A stretch of 64,000 bases of DNA from an uncultured Chitinophagaceae bacterium (GTDB lineage: Bacteria; Bacteroidota; Bacteroidia; Chitinophagales; CAIOSU01). How positions within the stretch are numbered: the stretch's first letter is position 1; every line of letters starts with the position of its first letter. A model generated the notes under the pieces. That model was not told where the DNA came from and did no database searches. It saw only the letters and a program-made list of their open reading frames with translations. The stretch spans positions 37,480 to 101,479 of the forward strand of contig CAZCXH010000001.1 in NCBI GenBank assembly GCA_964502525.1. Direction: 5' to 3'. The translations under genes and the position numbers were made by a program. Of this stretch, positions 10,125 to 40,220 are shown one piece after another.

Positions 10125-10355
10125 ATGGAGTTGAAATTTATTACGGACGAAAAGGGGAATCCGGTTGAAGTGATAGTCCCTATCAGGGAATGGAAGAACA
10201 TCGAAAAGAAGATAAGTTCGGTGAAAAAAAAGAAGGGGTTGTCAAAGAAGCAGGAAATTCTGAACGGATTAAAGCGCTCCATTGAAGCGGTTCGCCTTCA
10301 CCGTCAGGGAAAACTTAAACTCAAAACAGCGGAAGACTTATTGAATGAGCTATAG
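10125..10355 (+). CDS. putative antitoxin
   Basis: 76-aa ORF that overlaps the start of the following toxin-like ORF by 11 nt. Confidence 0.55.
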   Translation: MELKFITDEKGNPVEVIVPIREWKNIEKKISSVKKKKGLSKKQEILNGLKRSIEAVRLHRQGKLKLKTAEDLLNEL

Positions 10356-10673
10356 CATTCTTCCCACTCCTGATTTTGAAAAAGTTCTCAGGCGATTGGT
10401 GAAGAAATATCCTTCTTTAAAGAAAGAGTATGGCGAGTTGGTGATATCGCTGAAAGAGAATCCGATTCAGGGTGATCCGCTCGGAAAGAATTGCTACAAG
10501 ATAAGGATAGCGATTAAATCAAAAGGAAAGGGAAAAAGTGAGGCGCCAGGGTTATAACTTTCGTTGCAGTGGTGCATGAAGTGGTTTACCTGTTGTCTAT
10601 TTACGACAAATCTGAGAAAGAAAACATCTCAGATATGGAATTGAAAATCCTGCTTGAGCAAATTCCTGAATAG
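10345..10673 (+). pseudogene. RelE/HigB-like toxin, frameshifted
   Basis: The ORF stops at 10557 (...GKGKSEAPGL*). The +2 frame continues GARVITFVAVVHEVVYLLSIYDKSEKENISDMELKILLEQIPE* to 10673. Adding one G between 10540 and 10541 would restore the family motif KSGGARVI. Confidence 0.75.
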
Positions 10674-12919: not shown

Positions 12920-12951
12920 AGCCGGCATCGCTTGCTTTGCTATATAATAAC

Positions 12952-14271
12952 ATGCTTCGCCACACGACTCATATCATCATTGATGATCCGGACAACTTCA
13001 AGCGGCAAGCGCTGAGTTGGGCGGATGAAAATTTTGACACGGCCTGCTATTTCGACAATAATCATTACAAGAATTATTCACATCATTCTTATGAGGGACT
13101 CATTGCAGCAGGCGTAAAGAACATGCTGCTGCTGAATTGCGCAAACGCATTTGACAGCCTTAAGAATTTTTATGAAAACAGGAAAGACTGGCTCTTCGGC
13201 TTTCTCGGATATGACTTGAAAAACGAAGTCGAAAAACTTCAATCAGAAAATCATGACGGCCTGAATTTCCCCGATTTGTTTTTCTTCCAGCCGGAAGTGG
13301 TGATTGAGATTTTTGAGAAGCATGCGGTGGCGCATGCTTGCAGCGGTGCTTTCCCGCTCGCAATGCTCCGGAAGGCGCAAAACTCAATTCCGTCCGCATC
13401 ATCAGGGGAGATTCAACTCTGCAGCCGTGTTTCGAAAAGGGAGTACCTTGATACAGTTCAGAAAATCCGCAAGCACATATCGCGGGGCGATATCTATGAG
13501 ATGAATTATTGCCATGAATTTTTTGCCGAAAATGCCGGGATCAATCCGCTCAGCGCTTTTCTGCTACTGAACGAAGCCTCAAAAGCTCCCTTTTCATGTT
13601 ACTTAAAATTTGAAGGCAAGTATCTTTTATCGGCAAGTCCGGAGAGGTTTATGAAGAAGGAAGGAAGTAAACTTATTTCAATGCCTGTTAAAGGCACGGC
13701 CCGCAGGGGAAAAAGCCAGGATGAAGATGAGTCGTTGCGGAAAAAACTTTTTACAGATCCGAAAGAGCGCTCCGAAAATGTGATGATTGTGGACCTGGTG
13801 AGAAATGATTTGTCGCGCGGTTGCCTGGAGGGAACGGTGAAAGTGGAAGAGTTATTCGGCATCAAAACATTCCGGCAGGTGCATCAGATGGTTTCGGCAA
13901 TTTCAGGAACGATGAGAGATGATGCGCATTTCATTGATGCAATTAAAAACGCTTTCCCGATGGGATCCATGACGGGCGCTCCAAAAGTTCGCGCGATGGA
14001 ATTGATCGAGCAGTACGAAAAAACAAAGCGCGGCTTATATTCCGGTGCTGTTGGATACATTGCGCCTGATGGAGATTTTGATTTCAACGTGGTGATCCGT
14101 TCGCTGCTCTACAATTCAGTCAATCAATATCTCTCGTTCCATGTCGGCAGTGCGATTGTTGCGGATTCAGTTCCGGAAAAGGAATATGAGGAGTGTTTGC
14201 TGAAAGCGAAGGCGCTGAGGGAAGTGATACAGTCGGCTATGATTAACAGCGATTCGCCCACAATGGCTTAA
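12952..14271 (+). CDS. pabB: aminodeoxychorismate/anthranilate synthase component I family (PabB-like)
   Basis: Chorismate-binding C-terminus: SPERF, KGT..RG, ENVMIVDL.RND, FP.GSMTGAPK, RG.Y.GA.GY. Starts at the first ATG. Confidence 0.8.
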   Translation: MLRHTTHIIIDDPDNFKRQALSWADENFDTACYFDNNHYKNYSHHSYEGLIAAGVKNMLLLNCANAFDSLKNFYENRKDWLFGFLGYDLKNEVEKLQSENHDGLNFPDLFFFQPEVVIEIFEKHAVAHACSGAFPLAMLRKAQNSIPSASSGEIQLCSRVSKREYLDTVQKIRKHISRGDIYEMNYCHEFFAENAGINPLSAFLLLNEASKAPFSCYLKFEGKYLLSASPERFMKKEGSKLISMPVKGTARRGKSQDEDESLRKKLFTDPKERSENVMIVDLVRNDLSRGCLEGTVKVEELFGIKTFRQVHQMVSAISGTMRDDAHFIDAIKNAFPMGSMTGAPKVRAMELIEQYEKTKRGLYSGAVGYIAPDGDFDFNVVIRSLLYNSVNQYLSFHVGSAIVADSVPEKEYEECLLKAKALREVIQSAMINSDSPTMA

Positions 14272-14450
14272 AGCTTTGGCACATTTTTAAAATTTGTCAA
14301 AACAATCCGACTAAATATTTCATCTCACCATGACACCCTTTGGCTGAGTCTCATCCTAACATTGCCTGAAATGATCTTCGCATGCAGGGCAACGATGATT
14401 TCGACATTCACGCAGTTCTTGAGCATCTCAATTAACTCTGGTCGGAACAT

Positions 14451-14819
14451 TTGGACGACCAGGAGGATCCCTCGATCGTGGATGACATCATCGAAACGAT
14501 AAAATCCCTTGTTATCAATGGATATGACTTTTTGCTGCTCAACCAATTGAGATTTGATGATATTGCTCCGGTTGCCGGGCAGCATTTAAAGGAATTAGCT
14601 GACATCGCCTCAAAGAAGAATGTGGTAATAAAAAACCAACACTACGACACGGCAGCATGGCTGAGAGACCGCGAGAAAACAATCATTGGCAATATCCTTT
14701 CTGAAAAATTTGGGAAGAAATATTTCATGTTGCTGGACGAAGCGGAAAAGAAAATTATTTTCAGGTATTCGAATAGGGATATAGATAGGCTGGTGCCGGA
14801 CAATAGAAAAAGGTTTTAG
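14451..14819 (+). CDS. small hypothetical protein with a UVR-like motif
   Basis: HYDTAAWLRDREK resembles the UvrB/UvrC/McsA UVR motif (Y/F-E-x-A-A-x-L-R-D). There is no in-frame ATG, so the track uses a TTG start. An in-frame ATG at 14382 is separated from the ORF by TAA 14433-14435. It competes with the antisense ORF 14325..14585. Confidence 0.35.
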   Translation: MDDQEDPSIVDDIIETIKSLVINGYDFLLLNQLRFDDIAPVAGQHLKELADIASKKNVVIKNQHYDTAAWLRDREKTIIGNILSEKFGKKYFMLLDEAEKKIIFRYSNRDIDRLVPDNRKRF

Positions 14820-14827
14820 AGAATTAT

Positions 14828-14835
14828 TACTTTTG
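14828..14835 (+). promoter_or_regulatory. candidate Bacteroidota -7 box (tacttttg = TAnnTTTG)
   Basis: Exact match to the TAnnTTTG consensus, 47 nt upstream of the ATG at 14882. No convincing -33 TTG element. Confidence 0.3.
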
Positions 14836-14881
14836 GAAATCTGATCGAAGATAATATCGTAACTTAAAAATACTTCTTAAC

Positions 14882-15898
14882 ATGACTATTTGGGCGCTTA
14901 AAGGACCTTCTTCTGAAGATTATAGTATTAAAGAATTGCAAGAAGCTCAGCAATTTCTGACAGATTCATTTAAAAATGGAACATCCCGATTTGGGTGGAG
15001 TTACATTGATGGAGCAAATCTCAATAACCTGCAATCAAAGCAATGGCAAGAAATGACAGATGATGAACGGAACTGTTGGTCAAAAGCAAATTTTCTGCTT
15101 GAGATCGAAAAAGATGACTGGGTTGTGCATATTAATTTACCCTACTGGGGTGCCTGTCTTGCAGGGCAGGTTACAGAAACATACGCCTTTGAGGAAGAAA
15201 ATGATTTTGGTGATTATCGGCATACTCTGAAGATTGATATAGACAGTATTGTTGAGTTTGAAAGGAATGATGATGAGGTGTTGCCGGTTATAGGTAGTAG
15301 ATTAAAGCTACAAGGCAGATTCTGGCGTATCCAATACGTTGAAGAGTTCCTACAGTCAATTCAAAATTTAAAATCTAAGTCATTAAAAAAAAGTGACAAT
15401 GAGAGTGTCGGGATTTACTATCTTAAAAAAGACTTATCCCCTTTGCTTAAAAATATAACCAATAAAATTCAAAAGACTCATCCTTCCGGGAAACTGGAAA
15501 ACTTAATTGCTGAAGTGTTTCGCAAAATACCCAACGTGGTTGACGTTAATGAGCACGGAAGGAATAAGGGTTGGGGAACCGACCATGGTGCGGATTTAAT
15601 TGTTACTTACAAATCCGGGCTCACAATCAGCAACCTTGAAAAAGAAGAAAAGCTTGTTGTTCAGGTAAAGTCATATACAGGCCAGCATTGGGAAACCACT
15701 GCCGTCCAGCAAATTGAAAACGCCATATCCGAGTTTACAGCGGATGCTGGTTTAATTATTACAACAGCTGAAAGCACAAAAAATCTGGAGGAAGCAATTG
15801 AAACGTTAAGTAACAAAACAGAGAAGCCGATTGGCTTGATTGCTGGAGAAGATGTTGCGAAGTTTGTGTTGAAATATGGTAGAGAATTAATCCTCTGA
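14882..15898 (+). CDS. Mrr-type PD-(D/E)xK restriction endonuclease domain protein with an unassigned ~200-aa N-terminal domain
   Basis: C-terminus WGTDHGADLIV-(17 aa)-VVQVKSY fits the Mrr_cat D...(D/E)xK core. The N-terminal half (FGWSY, DDWVVHINLPYWGACLAGQV, GDYRH, GRFWRI) is unassigned. AT-rich: one 60-nt line counted by hand gives 21/60 GC. Confidence 0.75.
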   Translation: MTIWALKGPSSEDYSIKELQEAQQFLTDSFKNGTSRFGWSYIDGANLNNLQSKQWQEMTDDERNCWSKANFLLEIEKDDWVVHINLPYWGACLAGQVTETYAFEEENDFGDYRHTLKIDIDSIVEFERNDDEVLPVIGSRLKLQGRFWRIQYVEEFLQSIQNLKSKSLKKSDNESVGIYYLKKDLSPLLKNITNKIQKTHPSGKLENLIAEVFRKIPNVVDVNEHGRNKGWGTDHGADLIVTYKSGLTISNLEKEEKLVVQVKSYTGQHWETTAVQQIENAISEFTADAGLIITTAESTKNLEEAIETLSNKTEKPIGLIAGEDVAKFVLKYGRELIL

Positions 15899-15921
15899 AC
15901 TTCGGACAATTTTTTGTTTAA

Positions 15922-16439
15922 ATGACTTCCTTTACTGCCCGCGATTTTGAAACTGCCCAAGGCTACCGTTGGATCATCTGCCAGGTTGGATTGGTGAGAG
16001 TGGTGAATGGACAAATCACTAACAAGCTTGAGCTACTTGTACAACCTCCCGATAATCATTATTGGTGCCGCTTCACCGAAATTCACGGCATCACATCTGA
16101 GATGACTGAAAATGCTCTCACATTTGATAAAGTGTGGCATCTGATTGAGCTATCTATCCGAAATCAAAACGTAGTAGCGCACAATGGTCATGCTTTTGAT
16201 TTTCCCTGCTTGCAGCAAACACTGGATTATTACGGAATCGAAATGCCGGAATTCTATCCTCATTGTACCTACCGGTTGTTTGGTGATGGACTCGCTCGCT
16301 ATGTAAGGAATATCAGATCGAACTGAATCATCACAACGCACTCTCTGACGCACGGGCTTGTGCATGCGAGGCTATTTTTGATTCATCCGGAGCAACAGGA
16401 GGTAAGTTTATTACAGCAATAATCAAAGAATCGAAATGA
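15922..16439 (+). pseudogene. DEDDh (DnaQ/epsilon-like) 3'-5' exonuclease, frameshifted
   Basis: ExoI is ARDFETA and ExoII is HNGHAFDF, both in frame 1, which stops at 16326. ExoIII (HHNALSDARACA) is in the +2 frame, which is open from 16287 to TGA 16437-16439. A 1-nt deletion in the ctcgctcgct run (about 16291-16300) would explain the shift. Confidence 0.75.
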
Positions 16440-16933
16440 AACTAGAATTTGAAATAGTATCAATAGATTGGAGTGACTCTGCAATTAAAATACAAGATGT
16501 CTTTAAAAAAGAGACGACTACAGCCGAATTACGCAATTTCAAGGATAAGACTGACTGTCTCTATCAGGTTTATGGAGACAGCATAATTTATGGTCGTGAT
16601 AAACTTCTTTATATCGGGCTGACATCAAACCTTTCGCGTAGAACCAACAGCCATCTTGAAACGGATTTTAGCAGGATAACAAATTTTTCCTTGCTGCTTG
16701 GAGAAATAAGATGGAATACCCTTTCTAATGAAAAGTTCAAGGAAGCTGGAAATCGTGGTGAATCCTTAAAAATTTTAGAAAGCATCTTAATCACTTATGC
16801 AAAACCTTCATACAACTCGGACAACATAAAAGATATTTATCCTAAATCTCGCAATTACAACATTCTGATTCAGAATCATGGAAATAGGAGAGACTTGCCC
16901 TTGGAATGCTCCAACTCTTGGTGGAAAGAATAG
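16436..16933 (+). CDS. GIY-YIG nuclease-domain protein (UvrC/Cho N-terminal type)
   Basis: LYQVYG...LLYIGLTSNLSRRTNSH...ESILITYAKPSYN matches GIY / YIG / R / E..LI...P.YN. The ATG at 16436 overlaps the restored exonuclease stop (ATGA). Very AT-rich: 17/60 GC in one counted line. Confidence 0.65.
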   Translation: MKLEFEIVSIDWSDSAIKIQDVFKKETTTAELRNFKDKTDCLYQVYGDSIIYGRDKLLYIGLTSNLSRRTNSHLETDFSRITNFSLLLGEIRWNTLSNEKFKEAGNRGESLKILESILITYAKPSYNSDNIKDIYPKSRNYNILIQNHGNRRDLPLECSNSWWKE

Positions 16934-17010
16934 ATTCTGACATTTTTACTTTTCACTGAATGTTATAATAATAGTTTCAGCCCGCGACATGATTTGGCGC
17001 AGTAGTCACA

Positions 17011-17018
17011 TAGATTTG
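17011..17018 (+). promoter_or_regulatory. candidate Bacteroidota -7 box (tagatttg = TAnnTTTG)
   Basis: Exact consensus match, 27 nt upstream of the ATG at 17045, inside the 111-bp gap after the GIY-YIG gene. Confidence 0.3.
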
Positions 17019-17044
17019 CCTCCCCGTTTTAAAAATTACCATCT

Positions 17045-18163
17045 ATGATTGCTACGCAGAAAATTCAATCAACCGAGAGGAACATTGAGGTCAGGGAAAA
17101 CCTTGAAATCCGTAAAAGCGAATTGGCGATATTCGATGACCGAACAAGCTATGTCAGTTGCTCCAGGGTTTATTACGCCTACTTTGAAAAGATTCCCAGT
17201 TTGATAAGATTTGGCAGAATTAATTACAGACGCGTTATCAACTGGATAGAAAATGAGATGGCTGACCGTATTTTGAAAAAACATTCCAGGAGAGAATATG
17301 AAGATAGAAATAAATTTAGCAGTGAGACAATGGTGTATGTTCTTAAAAATAATTTGCTGATATGCCTTGGTCAGGATGGCAGCGGCTTGATTCTATATGA
17401 ACAAAACGGCAATGAGGCAGCGGAGCTTATCTTTCAAAGAGTGATTGGTTTCAGAAGGAGGAAAAGAAAAACAACTGATTTCAGCGTCATTACACGGGGA
17501 ATGGAAGGTTTCAGGCTCGTGGACATCAATAACCGGAAACCGGATCTGCAGTTGCAAAGAAACTATAATGACGACCTGATCCCATTGCATCAAAATATTT
17601 TAAAAAAGTTAAGAAGCGAAAAAACCAGTGGACTGATTTTGTTTCATGGCGCTCCTGGCACGGGCAAGACCACCTATATCCGATATCTGATTCATTGCCT
17701 GAATAAGAGGGTCATCTTTCTTTCTCCCAAACTGGCGGGAAATCTGGATTCACCTGACCTTATTAAGTTGCTGCTTGAAAACCCTGATTCAGTCTTGCTG
17801 ATTGAGGATGCGGAGGATTTGATTGCTTCAAGGGATTCGGACAAAAACTCCGGTATTTCAATGCTGCTGAATCTGTCAGATGGCATTCTTGGTGAAAGCC
17901 TTGGCATACAGGTGATTTGCACTTTCAATACAAGTATCGCAAATATTGATCGAGCGCTGTTAAGAAAAGGAAGATTGATTGGTGCGTATGAGTTCAAGCC
18001 ACTATGTGTTGCAAAATCAAAAGTGCTGTTGCATAATTTAGGAGTCACCACCTGTATCCCTCATCAGCCTATGACGCTTGCGGAAATTTATCATGTTGAG
18101 GCGAACCACTTTGAATTTAAAGCCGGGAGGAATGCGATAGGATTTGTGGCTGCTGCTGCGTAG
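17045..18163 (+). CDS. classical AAA ATPase (Bcs1-like layout) with an unassigned ~190-aa N-terminal domain
   Basis: Walker A is FHGAPGTGKTT, Walker B is VLLIEDAEDL, and the second region of homology / Arg finger is IDRALLRKGRL. The N-terminal half has no motif I recognise. Confidence 0.85.
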   Translation: MIATQKIQSTERNIEVRENLEIRKSELAIFDDRTSYVSCSRVYYAYFEKIPSLIRFGRINYRRVINWIENEMADRILKKHSRREYEDRNKFSSETMVYVLKNNLLICLGQDGSGLILYEQNGNEAAELIFQRVIGFRRRKRKTTDFSVITRGMEGFRLVDINNRKPDLQLQRNYNDDLIPLHQNILKKLRSEKTSGLILFHGAPGTGKTTYIRYLIHCLNKRVIFLSPKLAGNLDSPDLIKLLLENPDSVLLIEDAEDLIASRDSDKNSGISMLLNLSDGILGESLGIQVICTFNTSIANIDRALLRKGRLIGAYEFKPLCVAKSKVLLHNLGVTTCIPHQPMTLAEIYHVEANHFEFKAGRNAIGFVAAAA

Positions 18164-18181
18164 CTTCAAATAATATTTACC

Positions 18182-19087
18182 ATGTCCAAGCGCGAATACC
18201 TCACCCGCTACCTGCTCATCATCAAAAGATTAAGGAGAACCCCCGCTACCTTCCGGGAGATCAGCGACTACCTGCAACGGGAATCGGAATTGCAGGAGTT
18301 CAACTTCACCATTTCCAAACGCACCATGCAGCGCGACATCCGGGAGATACTGTCCATCTTCGGCATTCAGATCGAATATGATTTCTCACGGAAGGTTTAT
18401 TTCATCGCAGATGATGCTCATAATGATGTGAACAACCGGATGCTCGAAGCCTACGAGCTGTTCGATGCGCTGCGCCTTAATGACAAGATTTCTTCGAGCG
18501 TTTATTTTGACAACCGCAAAGCGCAGGGTGCGGAGCACCTGCACGGTATGCTCTATGCTATCAAAAATCGCAGGATCATCCGGTTTGACTACCAGAAGTT
18601 TTGGGAAGACGAAAAGACATCCCGCGCAGGCGAGCCTTATGCGCTGAAAGAATTCAGGAATCGCTGGTACGTGCTGATGCGCGATCTCAAGGATAAAACG
18701 GTCAAGAGTTTCGGCTTAGACAGGATTTCCGAGTTGGAGATAACGAAAACAGTTTTCAAGGATTCGCTTGAATTCAACATCAAGGAGCATTTCCGCAACT
18801 GCTTTGGCATCATCAGTCCGCATGACGGGGAGCCGCAGGAAATCATCTTGTCATTCGATTCGGTGCAGAGTAAATATTTGAAATCTCAGCCTTTGCACGA
18901 AACGCAGGAAATTTTGATGGAAACGGAAAATGAAACCCGTATTCGTCTGAATGTTTTCACCACCCATGATTTGATCATGGAGTTGCTCTCATTTGGAGAT
19001 AACGTAAAAGTGCTAATGCCCGAAAGCCTGGCAACTCAAATTCGTGACATTCTGAAAAGGACGTTGGCTAATTACGCTAAACTTTAA
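18182..19087 (+). CDS. HTH-WYL-WCX transcriptional regulator
   Basis: N-terminal wHTH (ATFREISDYL...ISKRTMQRDI). The WYL core is PYALKEFRNRWYVLMRD...FGLDRI. The C-terminal extension is typical of BrxR/CapW/PafBC-like regulators. It starts 18 nt after the AAA gene. Confidence 0.85.
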   Translation: MSKREYLTRYLLIIKRLRRTPATFREISDYLQRESELQEFNFTISKRTMQRDIREILSIFGIQIEYDFSRKVYFIADDAHNDVNNRMLEAYELFDALRLNDKISSSVYFDNRKAQGAEHLHGMLYAIKNRRIIRFDYQKFWEDEKTSRAGEPYALKEFRNRWYVLMRDLKDKTVKSFGLDRISELEITKTVFKDSLEFNIKEHFRNCFGIISPHDGEPQEIILSFDSVQSKYLKSQPLHETQEILMETENETRIRLNVFTTHDLIMELLSFGDNVKVLMPESLATQIRDILKRTLANYAKL

Positions 19088-19106
19088 ACTCTAAATTTCA
19101 AACTGA

Positions 19107-20384
19107 TTACTCCGCCACCACCAAATAATAATTCTTCTTCCCTTTCTGCACGAGCAGGTACTTGTTGTTGAGCAAATCCTTTGAGGTGAGTTTCATATTT
19201 TCATCAGCAACTTTTTCTTTATTGATGCTCAGTCCGCCTTCCTTCAAAGTTCTTTTTAATTCGCCCTTTGATGGAAACACCGCTGCTGATGCAGTCAGTC
19301 CATCGAGCAGCGATACTCCGTTTTCAAATATTGATTTCGATGCCTGAAAAACCGGCACTCCTTCAAACACGCTCAGGAAATCTTTCTCCGAAATGGAGAG
19401 GAGCGTTTCCTTTGTTGCCTTGCCGAATAAAATTTCAGATGCATTCAAAGCGGTCCGGTAATCATCTTCCGAATGAACCATCACCGTTACTTCCCTGGCA
19501 AGGCGTTTTTGCAGGTTCCTTAAATGAGCAGCCTGCCTGTGTTCCGCAACCAGCCCGTCAATTTCCTCCTTTGTAAGAAAAGTAAATATTTTGATATACT
19601 TTTCGGCTTCTTCATCTGAAACATTCAGCCAGAACTGGTAGAATTTGTAGGACGATGTCATCTCCGCATCAAGGTAAATATTCCCCTCTTCGGTTTTTCC
19701 GAATTTTCCGCCATCCGGTTTGGTAATCAGCGGGCTGGTGACGGCATAGGACTCACCTCCGCCCATTCTCCGGATGAGTTCTACCCCGGCAGTGATGTTG
19801 CCCCACTGGTCGCTGCCGCCCATCTGCACGGTGACGCCATGATGTTTGTTCATCCAGTAAAAATCATACGCCTGAATCAGTTGGTAAGAAAACTCGGTGT
19901 AGGATATTCCTGTCTCCATGCGTGACTTCACCGAATCCTTGGCAATCATATAATTAACAGTCAGATGTTTTCCAGCGTCACGCAGGAAGTCCAGCAACGT
20001 CATTTCCTTAAACCAATCGTAATTGTCAAGCATCAGCGGAGCTTTGGAGCTTTTTCCGAAATCAAAATATTTTGAAAGTTGCGTTTTCACGCGTTCTTTA
20101 TTGTGCAGCAGTTGTTCCTTGGAGAGAAGGTTGCGTTCCGCTGATTTTCCGGACGGGTCGCCAATCATCCCCGTGGCGCCACCGAGCAATGCAACGGGAC
20201 GGTGGCCGCAGCTTTGAAAAAAACGCAGTATCATAATCTGCACAAGATTGCCGATGCCGAGCGATGAGCTGGTGGGGTCAAAGCCGATGTAACCGGATGC
20301 CGCATGATTTTGCAGGAATTTGTCCGTTCCGGGAATCATGTCGAAAAACAATCCGCGCCACTTGAGTTCAGCTATAAAATCCAT
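19107..20384 (-). CDS. tyrS: tyrosine--tRNA ligase
   Basis: HIGH-type GFDPT..SLGIGNL, KFGKT (KMSKS variant) and a C-terminal S4 domain. Starts at MDFIAELKWRG; the upstream extension in the track is unlikely. Confidence 0.95.
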   Translation of the reverse strand: MDFIAELKWRGLFFDMIPGTDKFLQNHAASGYIGFDPTSSSLGIGNLVQIMILRFFQSCGHRPVALLGGATGMIGDPSGKSAERNLLSKEQLLHNKERVKTQLSKYFDFGKSSKAPLMLDNYDWFKEMTLLDFLRDAGKHLTVNYMIAKDSVKSRMETGISYTEFSYQLIQAYDFYWMNKHHGVTVQMGGSDQWGNITAGVELIRRMGGGESYAVTSPLITKPDGGKFGKTEEGNIYLDAEMTSSYKFYQFWLNVSDEEAEKYIKIFTFLTKEEIDGLVAEHRQAAHLRNLQKRLAREVTVMVHSEDDYRTALNASEILFGKATKETLLSISEKDFLSVFEGVPVFQASKSIFENGVSLLDGLTASAAVFPSKGELKRTLKEGGLSINKEKVADENMKLTSKDLLNNKYLLVQKGKKNYYLVVAE

Positions 20385-20742
20385 ATTAGGTTTTGCGCAA
20401 AGATAAATGATTGGATTAAGCGCCTTTCCCGGAATCGGCTGATGCAAGCGGTTTAAATTTATATCTAGGGTTCATTGCAAAAATCCGTACCTGAAACATT
20501 GAAGCATCAATACCCTTTCAGTTTATCACCCTATCATCTTTCATTCAACCTTAGCAACTGCGCCCTCCCGACCCGACCCAACCCGACCTTATTCACCATA
20601 TGAAGGCTGCCATAGCTTTTGGCAAGGTAAATAGAATAATTGGCGAAATTTATTGCCCACCTTGACTGAAAAGTGTGACAACGCAATCCTCTCTTGCCGG
20701 AACCTGTCAGGTTTATAGGTTTTTTGCAACTTTAGCCTCAAC

Positions 20743-39197: not shown

Positions 39198-40220
39198 TCA
39201 AGTCATTAAGAAAGAATACCGTCCGATGTTTTTCAAAGCCACGCCTGTGCCGCGCACCACAGCCCTGAGCGGGTCTTCCGCCACATGAACCGGCAGTTTT
39301 GTTTTTTGCGAGAGGCGCTTATCCAAACCTCTTATCAACGCACCGCCACCGGTGAGATAAACACCGGTTTTATAAATATCGGCTGCCAGTTCAGGGGGAG
39401 TTATTTCCAGTCCGCGCAACACCGCTTCCTCGATTTTGGAAATTGATTTGTCCATCGCATGGGCCACTTCTGAATAGGATACCATTATTTGCTTCGGAAT
39501 TCCTGTCATCAAGTCTTTTCCATTAACGGCATAATCTGCCGGAGGATCATCCAATTCGGTAAGCGCTGAACCCACGCTGATCTTTATTTTCTCCGCAGTG
39601 CGCTCGCCAATCATCATGTTGTGCTGCCTGCGCATGAAGTCTATAATATCATTGGTGAACGCATCGCCCGCCACGCGGATGGATTGGTCGCAAACGATTC
39701 CCGAAAGTGAAATCACCGCAATTTCCGTAGTTCCACCGCCAATGTCAATCACCATATTGCCACGCGGCTCTTCAACATCAATGCCGATGCCGATAGCGGC
39801 TGCCATCGGCTCAAAGATGAGCCACACCTCCCGCGCTCCCGCATGTTCTGCGGAATCCTTCACCGCCCGTTTTTCAACTTCCGTAATTCCCGAAGGAATG
39901 CATATCACCATGGTGTAGGATGGGGGGAAAAGAGGCGGCTTCTTGTAAATCATCTTTATCAGCTCGCGAATCATATCCTCAGCAGCACCGAAGTCGGCAA
40001 TCACGCCATCTTTCAACGGGCGAATGGTTTCGATGGTAGGATTCGTTTTCTCGTGCATCTGCACTGCCCTGTGCCCCACAGCGATTACCTTGTTTGACTT
40101 TTTGTCTTTGGCGACAATAGAAGGTTCATCCACCACCACCTTGCCATCATGGATGATGAGCGTGTTGGCGGTGCCCAAATCAATCGCAATCTCCTGGTTG
40201 AGAAAATTAAACAGCTTCAT
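39198..40220 (-). CDS. mreB: rod shape-determining protein MreB
   Basis: Actin-fold blocks IDLGTANT, DIGGGTTE and LTGGGALIRGLD. Confidence 0.95.
   Translation of the reverse strand: MKLFNFLNQEIAIDLGTANTLIIHDGKVVVDEPSIVAKDKKSNKVIAVGHRAVQMHEKTNPTIETIRPLKDGVIADFGAAEDMIRELIKMIYKKPPLFPPSYTMVICIPSGITEVEKRAVKDSAEHAGAREVWLIFEPMAAAIGIGIDVEEPRGNMVIDIGGGTTEIAVISLSGIVCDQSIRVAGDAFTNDIIDFMRRQHNMMIGERTAEKIKISVGSALTELDDPPADYAVNGKDLMTGIPKQIMVSYSEVAHAMDKSISKIEEAVLRGLEITPPELAADIYKTGVYLTGGGALIRGLDKRLSQKTKLPVHVAEDPLRAVVRGTGVALKNIGRYSFLMT

Follow-up and report, generated by a model that had tools for sequence, protein, structure and literature searches.

A palindromic operator, an AAA ATPase and a WYL regulator form a mobile regulatory unit in Bacteroidota

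When a gene for an AAA ATPase is followed after 18 nucleotides (nt) by a gene for a WYL-domain regulator, and nuclease genes lie directly upstream, the question is whether the pair serves these nucleases or works on its own. We address this question for a locus in 64,000 nt of DNA from an uncultured Chitinophagaceae bacterium (GenBank assembly GCA_964502525.1, contig CAZCXH010000001.1, positions 37,480 to 101,479 of the forward strand). This whole stretch is referred to as the window, and coordinates count from its first letter. An earlier note, made from the sequence alone, had proposed either that the ATPase and the regulator license the upstream nucleases or that they are an independent two-gene module. 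The second proposal is nearer the evidence: what is conserved is a core of operator, ATPase gene and WYL gene, and in the window the functional core is this two-gene unit with its operator (16985-19087). Together, operator, promoter, ATPase and regulator make up a regulatory unit that is self-contained and horizontally mobile in Bacteroidota. We are fairly sure of this regulatory architecture. As a full explanation of the locus, a WYL-switched unit with a remodelling ATPase stands at about even chances, and the molecular role of the ATPase as a protein remodeller is a tentative reading of its sequence. The elements of the core, all on the plus strand, are as follows.

16985 to 16999, plus strand: palindromic operator CGACATGATTTGGCG, 15 base pairs (bp), family pattern CGNCAYNNTTTGNCG, presumed WYL binding site
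17011 to 17018, plus strand: Bacteroidota-type -7 box TAGATTTG (TAnnTTTG), following the operator at 11 nt and preceding the ATG by 26 nt
17045 to 18163, plus strand: ATPase gene, 372 amino acids (aa), with GAPGTGKT at residues 202-209, LLIEDAED at residues 251-258 and RKGRL at residues 307-311
17045 to 17590, plus strand: N-terminal region of the ATPase, residues 1 to about 182, made of a disordered leader, an alpha/beta domain (about 39-165) and a linker
17450 to 17476, plus strand: basic loop FRRRKRKTT, residues 136-144
17561 to 17575, plus strand: NYNDD linker
18137 to 18145, plus strand: I-G-F tripeptide, residues 365-367, candidate docking motif
18182 to 19087, plus strand: WYL regulator gene, 301 aa, starting 18 nt past the ATPase stop and predicted to be co-transcribed with the ATPase gene

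The elements that the earlier note had read by eye are all in place. GAPGTGKT, LLIEDAED, RKGRL and FRRRKRKTT lie within the open reading frame (ORF) 17045-18163, the downstream gene encodes WYL (PF13280, E 1.7e-14) and WCX (PF25583, E 2.4e-10) domains by Pfam, and the TAnnTTTG box ahead of the pair is present at a position conserved in 44 other loci. The ATPase gene is no chance ORF, as full-length homologues at 40-62% identity number in the hundreds. A scan of 185,579 species genomes (one genome per species) gave 427 relatives, and the best 80 of them are essentially all from Bacteroidota (Flavobacterium, Chitinophagales, Sphingobacteriales, Cytophagales). Host proteins keep a length of 355-380 aa across Bacteroidota orders.

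ORFs were called and clustered around the best 80 of the 427 relatives. A WYL gene, always of a single cluster, lies within 5 kilobases (kb) of the ATPase gene in 37 of the 43 loci with at least 5 kb on both sides (58 of 82 overall), and in 43 cases it is downstream on the ATPase strand. The pairing is not accidental. To the question whether WYL is always adjacent, the answer is divided: proximity holds in nearly all well-flanked loci, direct adjacency in 21 cases only, with one to seven genes between in 37. What else co-varies with the two genes is a variable set, mostly of DNA- or nucleotide-acting enzymes, which we refer to as cargo. Because the housekeeping genes on either side of the AAA-WYL unit change from genome to genome, we consider the family accessory and mobile rather than housekeeping. 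For example, in the two closest relatives (58-62% identity) the unit lies beside heme-biosynthesis genes (ALAD/hemB, class-III aminotransferase) and is preceded by a gene similar to uracil-DNA glycosylase (UDG). In the window it occupies a low-G+C island, with a G+C fraction of 0.411 against 0.466 and 0.474 in the flanks.

14272 to 19090: low-G+C accessory island, 4.8 kb, between pabB and tyrS, containing the AAA and WYL genes, an Mrr-type nuclease, a DEDDh exonuclease, a GIY-YIG nuclease and a 122-aa ORF
12937 to 14271: pabB, left flank of the island
19107 to 20447, minus strand: tyrS, right flank of the island

The operator came to light when gapped palindromes upstream of the ATPase genes were counted and compared with shuffled controls. 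The gapped palindrome CGNCA-N5-TGNCG stood far above these controls; a plain k-mer count of the same upstream regions returned AT-rich background only. In 44 of 79 loci the exact palindrome lies 9-63 nt (mostly 50-63) before the called start of the ATPase ORF, and the consensus of these 44 sites reads CGaCAT..TTTG.CGt........ttTA..TTTG, with the box always 11 nt downstream of the palindrome. Neither element is significant by its count in the window alone, where TAnnTTTG occurs 16 times and the degenerate palindrome twice against 1.03 expected. Scored with a position weight matrix (PWM), the operator at 16985-16999 is the sole strong match in the 64-kb window (22.8, next best 11.3). The other degenerate match, CGGCATAATCTGCCG at 39527-39541, lacks the TTTG, accounts for the score of 11.3 and is probably due to chance.

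When host loci, at 21 kb per genome, were scanned with the PWM, the operator was found before the ATPase gene 48 times and before the WYL gene 13 times. It also precedes cargo genes, which encode NT5C, DUF2779, a UVR-motif protein, a protein with DnaB_C only, SLOG proteins and a second, unrelated AAA ATPase. In the nearest relatives, the UDG-like gene and the ATPase gene each have their own operator copy. The operator co-occurs with WYL, being present in 36 of 41 loci with a WYL gene versus 3 of 10 without (Fisher's exact test, p = 6e-4), and beyond 6 kb from the module it becomes rare, with 5 sites in 380 kb. Phage loci that encode homologous ATPases contain no operator site in 1.19 Mb. The palindrome is unlike the LexA-like boxes of Bacteroidetes (PMC8565304). 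From these associations we infer that the WYL protein probably binds the operator.

To look at the operator free of the ATPase family, metagenome contigs were searched for the operator-plus-box pattern alone, and at least 120 stretches matched. Among the matches listed, to which the following counts refer, 99 sites have a downstream ORF, at a median distance of 25 nt. The commonest gene behind these sites is a WYL gene of this family (33 of 99), while this AAA family follows 7 and other AAA proteins of PF00004 follow 9 of the 99. The other AAA types are a 'second AAA' type of 555-577 aa, soluble AAA-M41 fusions and a double-AAA protein of 773 aa. Further targets include a UmuC-like Y-family polymerase, DnaB_C, a RecD-like helicase, an RNase_T exonuclease, DUF4268, a phage lysozyme and an M15 peptidase. 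Because this unbiased scan finds WYL and AAA genes as the main targets, the operator defines a wider WYL regulon in Bacteroidota. AAA ATPases are the commonest non-regulator targets, and the pair in the window is one instance of the regulon.

Several individual loci (numbered L in our collection) behind the operator deserve mention in their own right. The second AAA family is found at L026:7913-9604(-), L031:7969-9636(-) and L050:1174-2826, and also in L196, L245, L252 and L265; its operator-driven members have 550-577 aa, a canonical pore loop (MWFGES), 27% identity to the ATPase of the window over the core and a C-terminus of the type ...K/S-IGF. L219:1424-3469 and L275:139-2223 encode soluble AAA-Peptidase_M41 proteins (FtsH-like, HExGH, free of a membrane anchor) directly behind the operator. 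At L207:626-1885(-), a UmuC-like polymerase (IMS, IMS_C, DUF4113) follows operator and -7 box. Short Cys-rich repeat proteins of 76-154 aa, with the unit ..YC.(W/Y)CG(S/T)K.SS(I/V)S.LT...CS..P.., recur behind the operator in the metagenome (L197, L201, L208, L214) and at L074:4852-5082. Finally, L059:7600-9800 and L061:8400-9300 contain five to six tandem copies of operator and promoter, each before a short gene, in an arrangement resembling a phage early region; these short genes include a SpoU-type methylase and unknown proteins.

We turn to the regulator that presumably reads this operator. Its N-terminus, presumed to be a winged helix-turn-helix (HTH), has as sole match the FokI_D3 winged-helix domain, at a sub-threshold E of 0.008; of the first 75 residues of the WYL regulators, R9, T48 and R51 show no variation. 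A profile of the family, built from 28 regulators, was scored against solved structures and matched PafBC at E 4e-21, DriD at 3e-13, CapW at 9e-5 and BrxR at 2e-4 to 7e-4. Judged by this profile, the WYL proteins are far closer to PafBC and DriD than to BrxR or CapW. DriD and PafBC respond to single-stranded DNA (ssDNA). The WYL domain of SiwR binds ssDNA too (PMC10693628). All three activate responses of the DNA-damage type, and for PafBC and SiwR the site of action is the -26 region of the promoter (PMC10693628, PMC6789036). In the family studied here, 11 nt separate the end of the right half-site from the -7 box, which puts this half-site at about -26 to -30, a position that would fit the PafBC/SiwR geometry by analogy.

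The likeness to PafBC, SiwR and DriD comprises the WYL-WCX architecture behind a presumed HTH, with PafBC and DriD as the top solved matches, a site that abuts a -10-like element near -26, and DNA-repair-type genes among the targets. The difference is that PafBC is a heterodimer with a non-palindromic box (PMC6789036), whereas the regulator in the window is a single chain of homodimer type with a palindromic operator. With BrxR and CapW our regulator shares a palindrome in the promoter of its own operon and a variable, nuclease-type cargo in mobile islands; it differs in the much weaker sequence relation (E 1e-4 to 7e-3, against 4e-21 for PafBC) and in its constant partner, which is an AAA ATPase and not a set of BREX or CBASS genes. 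The UmuC-like polymerase behind the operator hints that the regulon may include some canonical damage-response genes.

The most constant partner of this regulator, the ATPase, is a single AAA module behind a family-specific N-terminal domain. Pfam places AAA (PF00004) on residues 198-311 (E 6e-11), and in an alignment of 34 sequences the Walker A motif (G202..K208), E254/D255, the sensor-1 residue N295, R307 and R310 are invariant, including the arginines of ALLRKGRL that correspond to the Arg-finger or second-region-of-homology residues. In the AlphaFold model of the whole protein (mean predicted local distance difference test, pLDDT, 80.5), Foldseek returns Bcs1 in its first eight ranks and Bacillus subtilis YjoB in the ninth (E about 1e-12 over 330-380 columns). 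Walker B has the Bcs1-style 'ED' (IEDAE), and AGNLDSP stands at the position of pore-loop 1, which as in Bcs1 is free of aromatic residues. The earlier note had concluded from the order of its motifs that the AAA module is Bcs1-like, and this holds. Bcs1 and YjoB are also the top matches at full length and share both these features and the layout of an N-domain of about 150 aa before one AAA module. Unlike Bcs1, the ATPase has no transmembrane anchor and no BCS1_N by Pfam, its N-domain alone matches Bcs1 at E 0.26 only, and it ends in a family-specific IGF tail. No transmembrane segment was found in it (maximal 19-residue Kyte-Doolittle mean 1.19) and its leader is hydrophilic and predicted disordered. 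By its residues and their conservation, the ATPase is predicted to be soluble and catalytically intact.

The N-terminal domain is unassigned, as had been noted, because Pfam, PDB fold and PDB profile searches give nothing significant. More specifically, Pfam at E <= 10 returned no match on residues 1-182, BCS1_N included, and the sequence profile of the domain had no match in the PDB. Modelled alone with AlphaFold2, it is an alpha/beta domain (pLDDT 81) with no significant Foldseek match in the PDB (best E 0.012; Bcs1 E 0.26, template-modelling score, TM-score, 0.20), in a protein whose overall layout is like that of Bcs1 and YjoB; this supplies the structure prediction that the note had called for. 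Likenesses to TATA-binding protein and to the spermine-synthase N-domain (TM-score about 0.27-0.32) were too weak to be accepted. In the BFVD, one match alone is significant, a phage 'putative ATPase' of 403 aa that presumably belongs to this family too. Because all 642 cluster representatives (50% identity) that match the N-domain profile among 1.84 billion are no longer than about 450 aa, the domain is limited to one architecture. 'Novel' holds for it as regards Pfam and solved structures, and needs amending in that the domain is common to phage homologues.

These phage relatives are numerous. The ATPase family corresponds to PHROG 14322, annotated 'unknown function' (E 6.5e-21 for the window protein, 1.2e-26 for that of Pseudomonas phage MIJ3). 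IMG/VR holds 190 relatives; the loci of 80 of them were examined, and all 80 encode homologues of 342-452 aa, of which 68 match the N-domain profile and nearly all end in IGF. No WYL neighbour was found in these 80 viral loci. Phage homologues in GenBank (tblastn, 38-43% identity, alignments running through residue 367) come from the Pseudomonas jumbo phages PA5oct and MIJ3, where they are annotated 'AAA+ ATPase and BCS1 domain protein', and from Xanthomonas phages Xoo-sp13 and XacN1, Stenotrophomonas phage CM1, Myxococcus phage Mx1 and several 'huge' phages. The MIJ3 protein has the same NYNDD, IEDAE, ICTFN and RKGRL motifs and the C-terminus KIGFGN. We take the proteins of jumbo and other large phages as true homologues (33-48% identity over the AAA module, motifs and IGF end shared); unlike the host proteins, they have neither WYL nor operator and sit in nucleotide-metabolism modules. 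In phages the neighbours of the ATPase gene are topoisomerase II, thymidylate synthase (ThyA), deoxynucleoside monophosphate kinase, metallophosphatase, Dam, NAPRT and nicotinamide adenine dinucleotide (NAD) synthase. In a neighbour-joining tree, a crude one lacking support values, the 34 chromosomal sequences group in a single clade that lies among the viral ones, which suggests a single capture of a phage gene by Bacteroidota.

Two points concern the phages themselves. In a related viral group (L130-L153, IMG/VR sample 3300045988, contigs of 90-150 kb) the ATPase homologue lies just downstream of NAPRT and NAD-synthase genes, a salvage pair that may counter NAD-depleting defences. A review speculatively gave phage BCS1 orthologues a role in membrane-proximal virion assembly (PMC7824862).

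A further feature that host and phage proteins share is the C-terminal tail. In the 34-sequence alignment G366 and F367 are invariant and I365 is at least 90% conserved; [IVLM]GF occurs within the last 16 residues in 188 of 190 full-length members. Residues 355-372 have a pLDDT below 50 and are predicted to form a disordered tail; the tripeptide, borne by these 188 of 190 members, is of the [LIV]-G-[FL] type and predicted to be exposed. IGF endings are also found in unrelated operator-driven AAA families, where 4 of 5 c80-like proteins end in ...IGF.. and the operator-driven double-AAA protein of 773 aa ends in ...MGL; the operator-driven AAA-M41 fusions have no IGF-type tail. [LIV]-G-[FL] is the tripeptide by which Clp ATPases bind ClpP (in our family the motif often reads IGFG, as in ClpX), and the C-terminal GQYL of Mpa is likewise a short docking motif for a peptidase. 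The tail of the ATPase would probably serve to dock it onto a partner, plausibly the ClpP peptidase. With ClpX, ClpA and ClpC the family has in common a conserved [IVLM]-G-F in a flexible segment, present also in those co-regulated AAA families that are not fused to M41; it differs in bearing the motif on the C-terminal tail and not on an internal loop, in its AAA clade and in having no usual pore loop. An inducible proteolytic arm coupled to ClpP is the most attractive specific mechanism we can offer, favoured because the tail matches the Clp tripeptide and the co-regulated AAA proteins have either the tail or a fused peptidase. It is nonetheless a doubtful proposal.

Put together, these elements suggest the following course. 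A WYL dimer would bind the palindrome CGNCAYNNTTTGNCG abutting the -7 box and would sense a nucleic-acid ligand, by analogy ssDNA, arising on DNA damage or phage replication. It would then switch on the ATPase, itself and those accessory genes that have the same operator, which in other genomes encode UDG-like enzymes, DEDDh exonuclease, PD-(D/E)xK, DUF2779, NT5C, DnaB_C, a UmuC-like polymerase and other AAA proteins. The ATPase, a Bcs1-like ring and the most constant output of the module, would remodel or extract a protein substrate through its N-domain and could dock onto a partner via its C-terminal [IVLM]-G-F, plausibly ClpP, giving a proteolytic arm as Mpa and the proteasome give for PafBC. 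The parallel is that of a regulator tied to a classical-clade AAA protein with a C-terminal docking motif (GQYL in Mpa). In contrast to the Pup-proteasome/Mpa locus, there are no Pup, Dop or 20S genes here, the ATPase is Bcs1-like and not Mpa-like, and the unit is accessory and mobile, not core. Our full-text search of the literature gave no description of the AAA-WYL module, the operator or the tail, and we put it at roughly one chance in two that the unit is an undescribed inducible stress or anti-phage module. The most complete version, in which a Bacteroidota WYL regulon of the PafBC/DriD type, defined by CGNCAYNNTTTGNCG, has AAA unfoldases as its main outputs, and the phage-born ATPase of the window is induced by ssDNA, docks onto ClpP or another peptidase and degrades specific proteins in damage or infection, would be unlikely to hold in every part.

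To our knowledge, the only system described for DNA damage in Bacteroidota is LexA-like, and WYL control is known for DNA-damage responses of Actinobacteria and Caulobacter and for defence islands of Proteobacteria. The present data provide a testable operator, regulator family and target set for a second, WYL-based circuit in Bacteroidota. They also link this circuit to an uncharacterised AAA family common in large phages, the Pseudomonas jumbo phages among them. Should the IGF tail serve for docking onto a peptidase, these proteins would represent a new type of ClpP partner, which would explain what the 'BCS1-like' ATPases of jumbo phages do; this new class of partner would then be common to large phages and their hosts. 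Experiments are feasible because the module occurs in cultured Flavobacterium strains, among them F. faecale WV33, F. omnivorum CGMCC 1.2747, F. micromati DSM 17659, F. aciduliphilum DSM 25663 and F. soyangense.

A number of observations weigh against such an inducible, damage-type circuit with a proteolytic output. Within the operator lies a TTTG, a possible -33 element that a repressor would occlude. The sign of regulation may therefore go either way, and repression by a bound dimer, as with BrxR and CapW, is equally conceivable. Among the operator targets listed, the UmuC-like polymerase is the only canonical damage gene, and some targets, e.g., lysozyme and leucine-rich-repeat proteins, are unrelated. 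The idea of ClpP docking draws on a three-residue motif and a complementary pattern in a handful of proteins. In Clp ATPases it is an internal loop, and no C-terminal tail, that bears this motif. The homologues in phages do without WYL, and the tree behind the single-capture scenario has no support values. Lastly, a patchy, mobile, low-G+C module with defence-candidate cargo (PDC-S26, PDC-S02, Cas4-like) equally fits an anti-phage island.

Among the alternatives, the one that survives best concerns the neighbours: the AAA-WYL pair would be independent of them, and the nucleases of the window would be separate single-gene systems that accumulated at one island. The genes concerned lie upstream of the core.

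14451 to 14819, plus strand: 122-aa ORF with TTG start, UVR match sub-threshold (E 0.012), module membership uncertain
14882 to 15898, plus strand: Mrr-type PD-(D/E)xK nuclease, 338 aa, Mrr_cat E 5e-10, PADLOC candidate PDC-S02 E 5e-13
15922 to 16437, plus strand: DEDDh (DnaQ-like) 3'-5' exonuclease, RNase_T E 2e-10, family c4, with a 1-nt deletion near 16297
16436 to 16933, plus strand: GIY-YIG nuclease, 165 aa, Pfam GIY-YIG E 1.4e-5

The PWM scan of the 64-kb window places no operator upstream of the genes at 14451, 14882, 15922 and 16436. The licensing of these nucleases that the earlier note had proposed is unsupported here because the Mrr-like, DEDDh and GIY-YIG genes have no operator, the exonuclease is frameshifted and the Mrr-like protein matches a stand-alone candidate. 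The frameshift is either a pseudogene mutation or an assembly error: the HHNALSD motif continues in another frame to the stop at 16435-16437, which overlaps the start of the GIY-YIG gene (ATGA). Repair of the frame would couple the translation of exonuclease and GIY-YIG nuclease, a pair that resembles NF005906, in which DEDD and GIY-YIG are fused. Independence is further favoured by the closest relatives, whose neighbour is a different one, the UDG-like gene, and by the 21 loci with the bare pair. It is opposed by what is found elsewhere, where nuclease-type genes (DEDDh, GIY-YIG, PD-(D/E)xK, DUF2779, UDG-like) recur around the AAA-WYL pair. The cargo comprises the following.

DEDDh exonuclease (family c4), 13 loci: homologous to that of the window, beside or between the AAA and WYL genes
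PDDEXK_4 nuclease, 13 loci: PADLOC candidate PDC-S26, E 1e-85
DUF2779, 20 loci: Cas4-like
UDG-superfamily proteins: several families
GIY-YIG: recurrent
Metallophosphoesterase and NT5C nucleotidase: recurrent
Metallo-beta-lactamase (MBL)/beta-CASP, HSDR_N and SIR2: occasional

A Zeta toxin is also among the cargo. For GIY-YIG there is one Pfam match in another locus, and three cargo proteins (family c33 and one gene each in L029 and L070) are GIY-YIG-like by eye, one of which may be the Pfam-matched gene. Because cargo elsewhere has its own operator copy, the nuclease association is a property of the module type, even if decayed here. We judge independence in the window only a little short of an even prospect. 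As to the 122-aa ORF, operator-driven UVR-motif proteins (family c35) follow WYL in L060, L063 and L071; homology of the ORF to this family was rejected, as only 28 aa align.

Next in standing is a dedicated anti-phage system, with WYL as a BrxR/CapW-like repressor, the ATPase as sensor or effector (e.g., poisoning a process that uses the phage ATPase) and nucleases and glycosylases attacking phage DNA. The patchy distribution, the low-G+C island and the variable insertion sites agree with it, and so does the cargo, with PDC-S26 (E 1e-85), PDC-S02, Cas4-like DUF2779, SIR2 and Zeta toxin. A WYL repressor stands at the head of many defence islands (PMC9122588), and enzymes of the UDG superfamily are proven antiviral effectors (PMC11078745). 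The phage homologues of the ATPase invite a mechanism of mimicry or interference, and an operator that overlaps a possible -33 TTTG would fit repression by occlusion. Set against this, the regulator is much nearer to the activators PafBC and DriD than to BrxR and CapW, the UmuC-like, DnaB_C and RecD-like targets among the matches listed are of the damage-regulon type, the nucleases of the window are outside operator control with one of them broken, and 21 loci have AAA-WYL with nothing between. The ATPase itself has no component model in PADLOC 2.0 beyond P-loop-level matches (TRIP13 E 3.6e-4 on residues 249-353, IetA E 0.01 on the P-loop). IetAS (Gao_Iet) and CBASS Cap6/TRIP13 are similar in having a small classical AAA protein with an N-domain in anti-phage systems, IetA together with a protease partner; here the matches are partial or at the P-loop level, no IetS or HORMA partner is present, and membership of the ATPase in either was rejected. 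The anti-phage and damage-response readings are not mutually exclusive, and the former is a strong rival, though in its dedicated form we think it possible rather than probable.

It is improbable, in turn, that the locus is a decaying prophage or satellite cassette, in which phage early genes stand under a repressor of phage type and repeated promoters and have no function in the host. Such a cassette would account for an ATPase family whose greatest diversity is in phages, where its neighbours act in nucleotide and DNA metabolism, for host cargo that overlaps with phage genes (metallophosphatase, NT5C, exonuclease, GIY-YIG, DnaB_C), for the loci with five to six tandem copies of operator and promoter, and for lysozyme and M15 peptidase behind the operator in some contigs. 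Yet the 80 viral loci (1.19 Mb) have neither WYL nor operator, and the host proteins form a single clade of 355-380 aa with intact catalytic residues across Bacteroidota orders. Structural, integrase or replication genes were absent from most host loci, where the pair is flanked by housekeeping genes. The weakest alternative, a broadly conserved housekeeping chaperone next to a regulator by chance, which the earlier note had named as the finding that would count against it, has the classical AAA module with intact motifs in its favour and is effectively refuted by the distribution of the family (427 relatives in 185,579 species genomes, the best 80 nearly all Bacteroidota; 1.84 billion representatives yield 642 clusters at the 50% identity level), its varying chromosomal positions, the low-G+C island and the strong linkage to WYL and operator, leaving it a negligible chance.

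Outside the island, at 10125-10557 of the window, we noted by eye two short overlapping ORFs (76 and 70 aa) that resemble an antitoxin-toxin pair; the second is similar to the RelE/ParE type and ends early.

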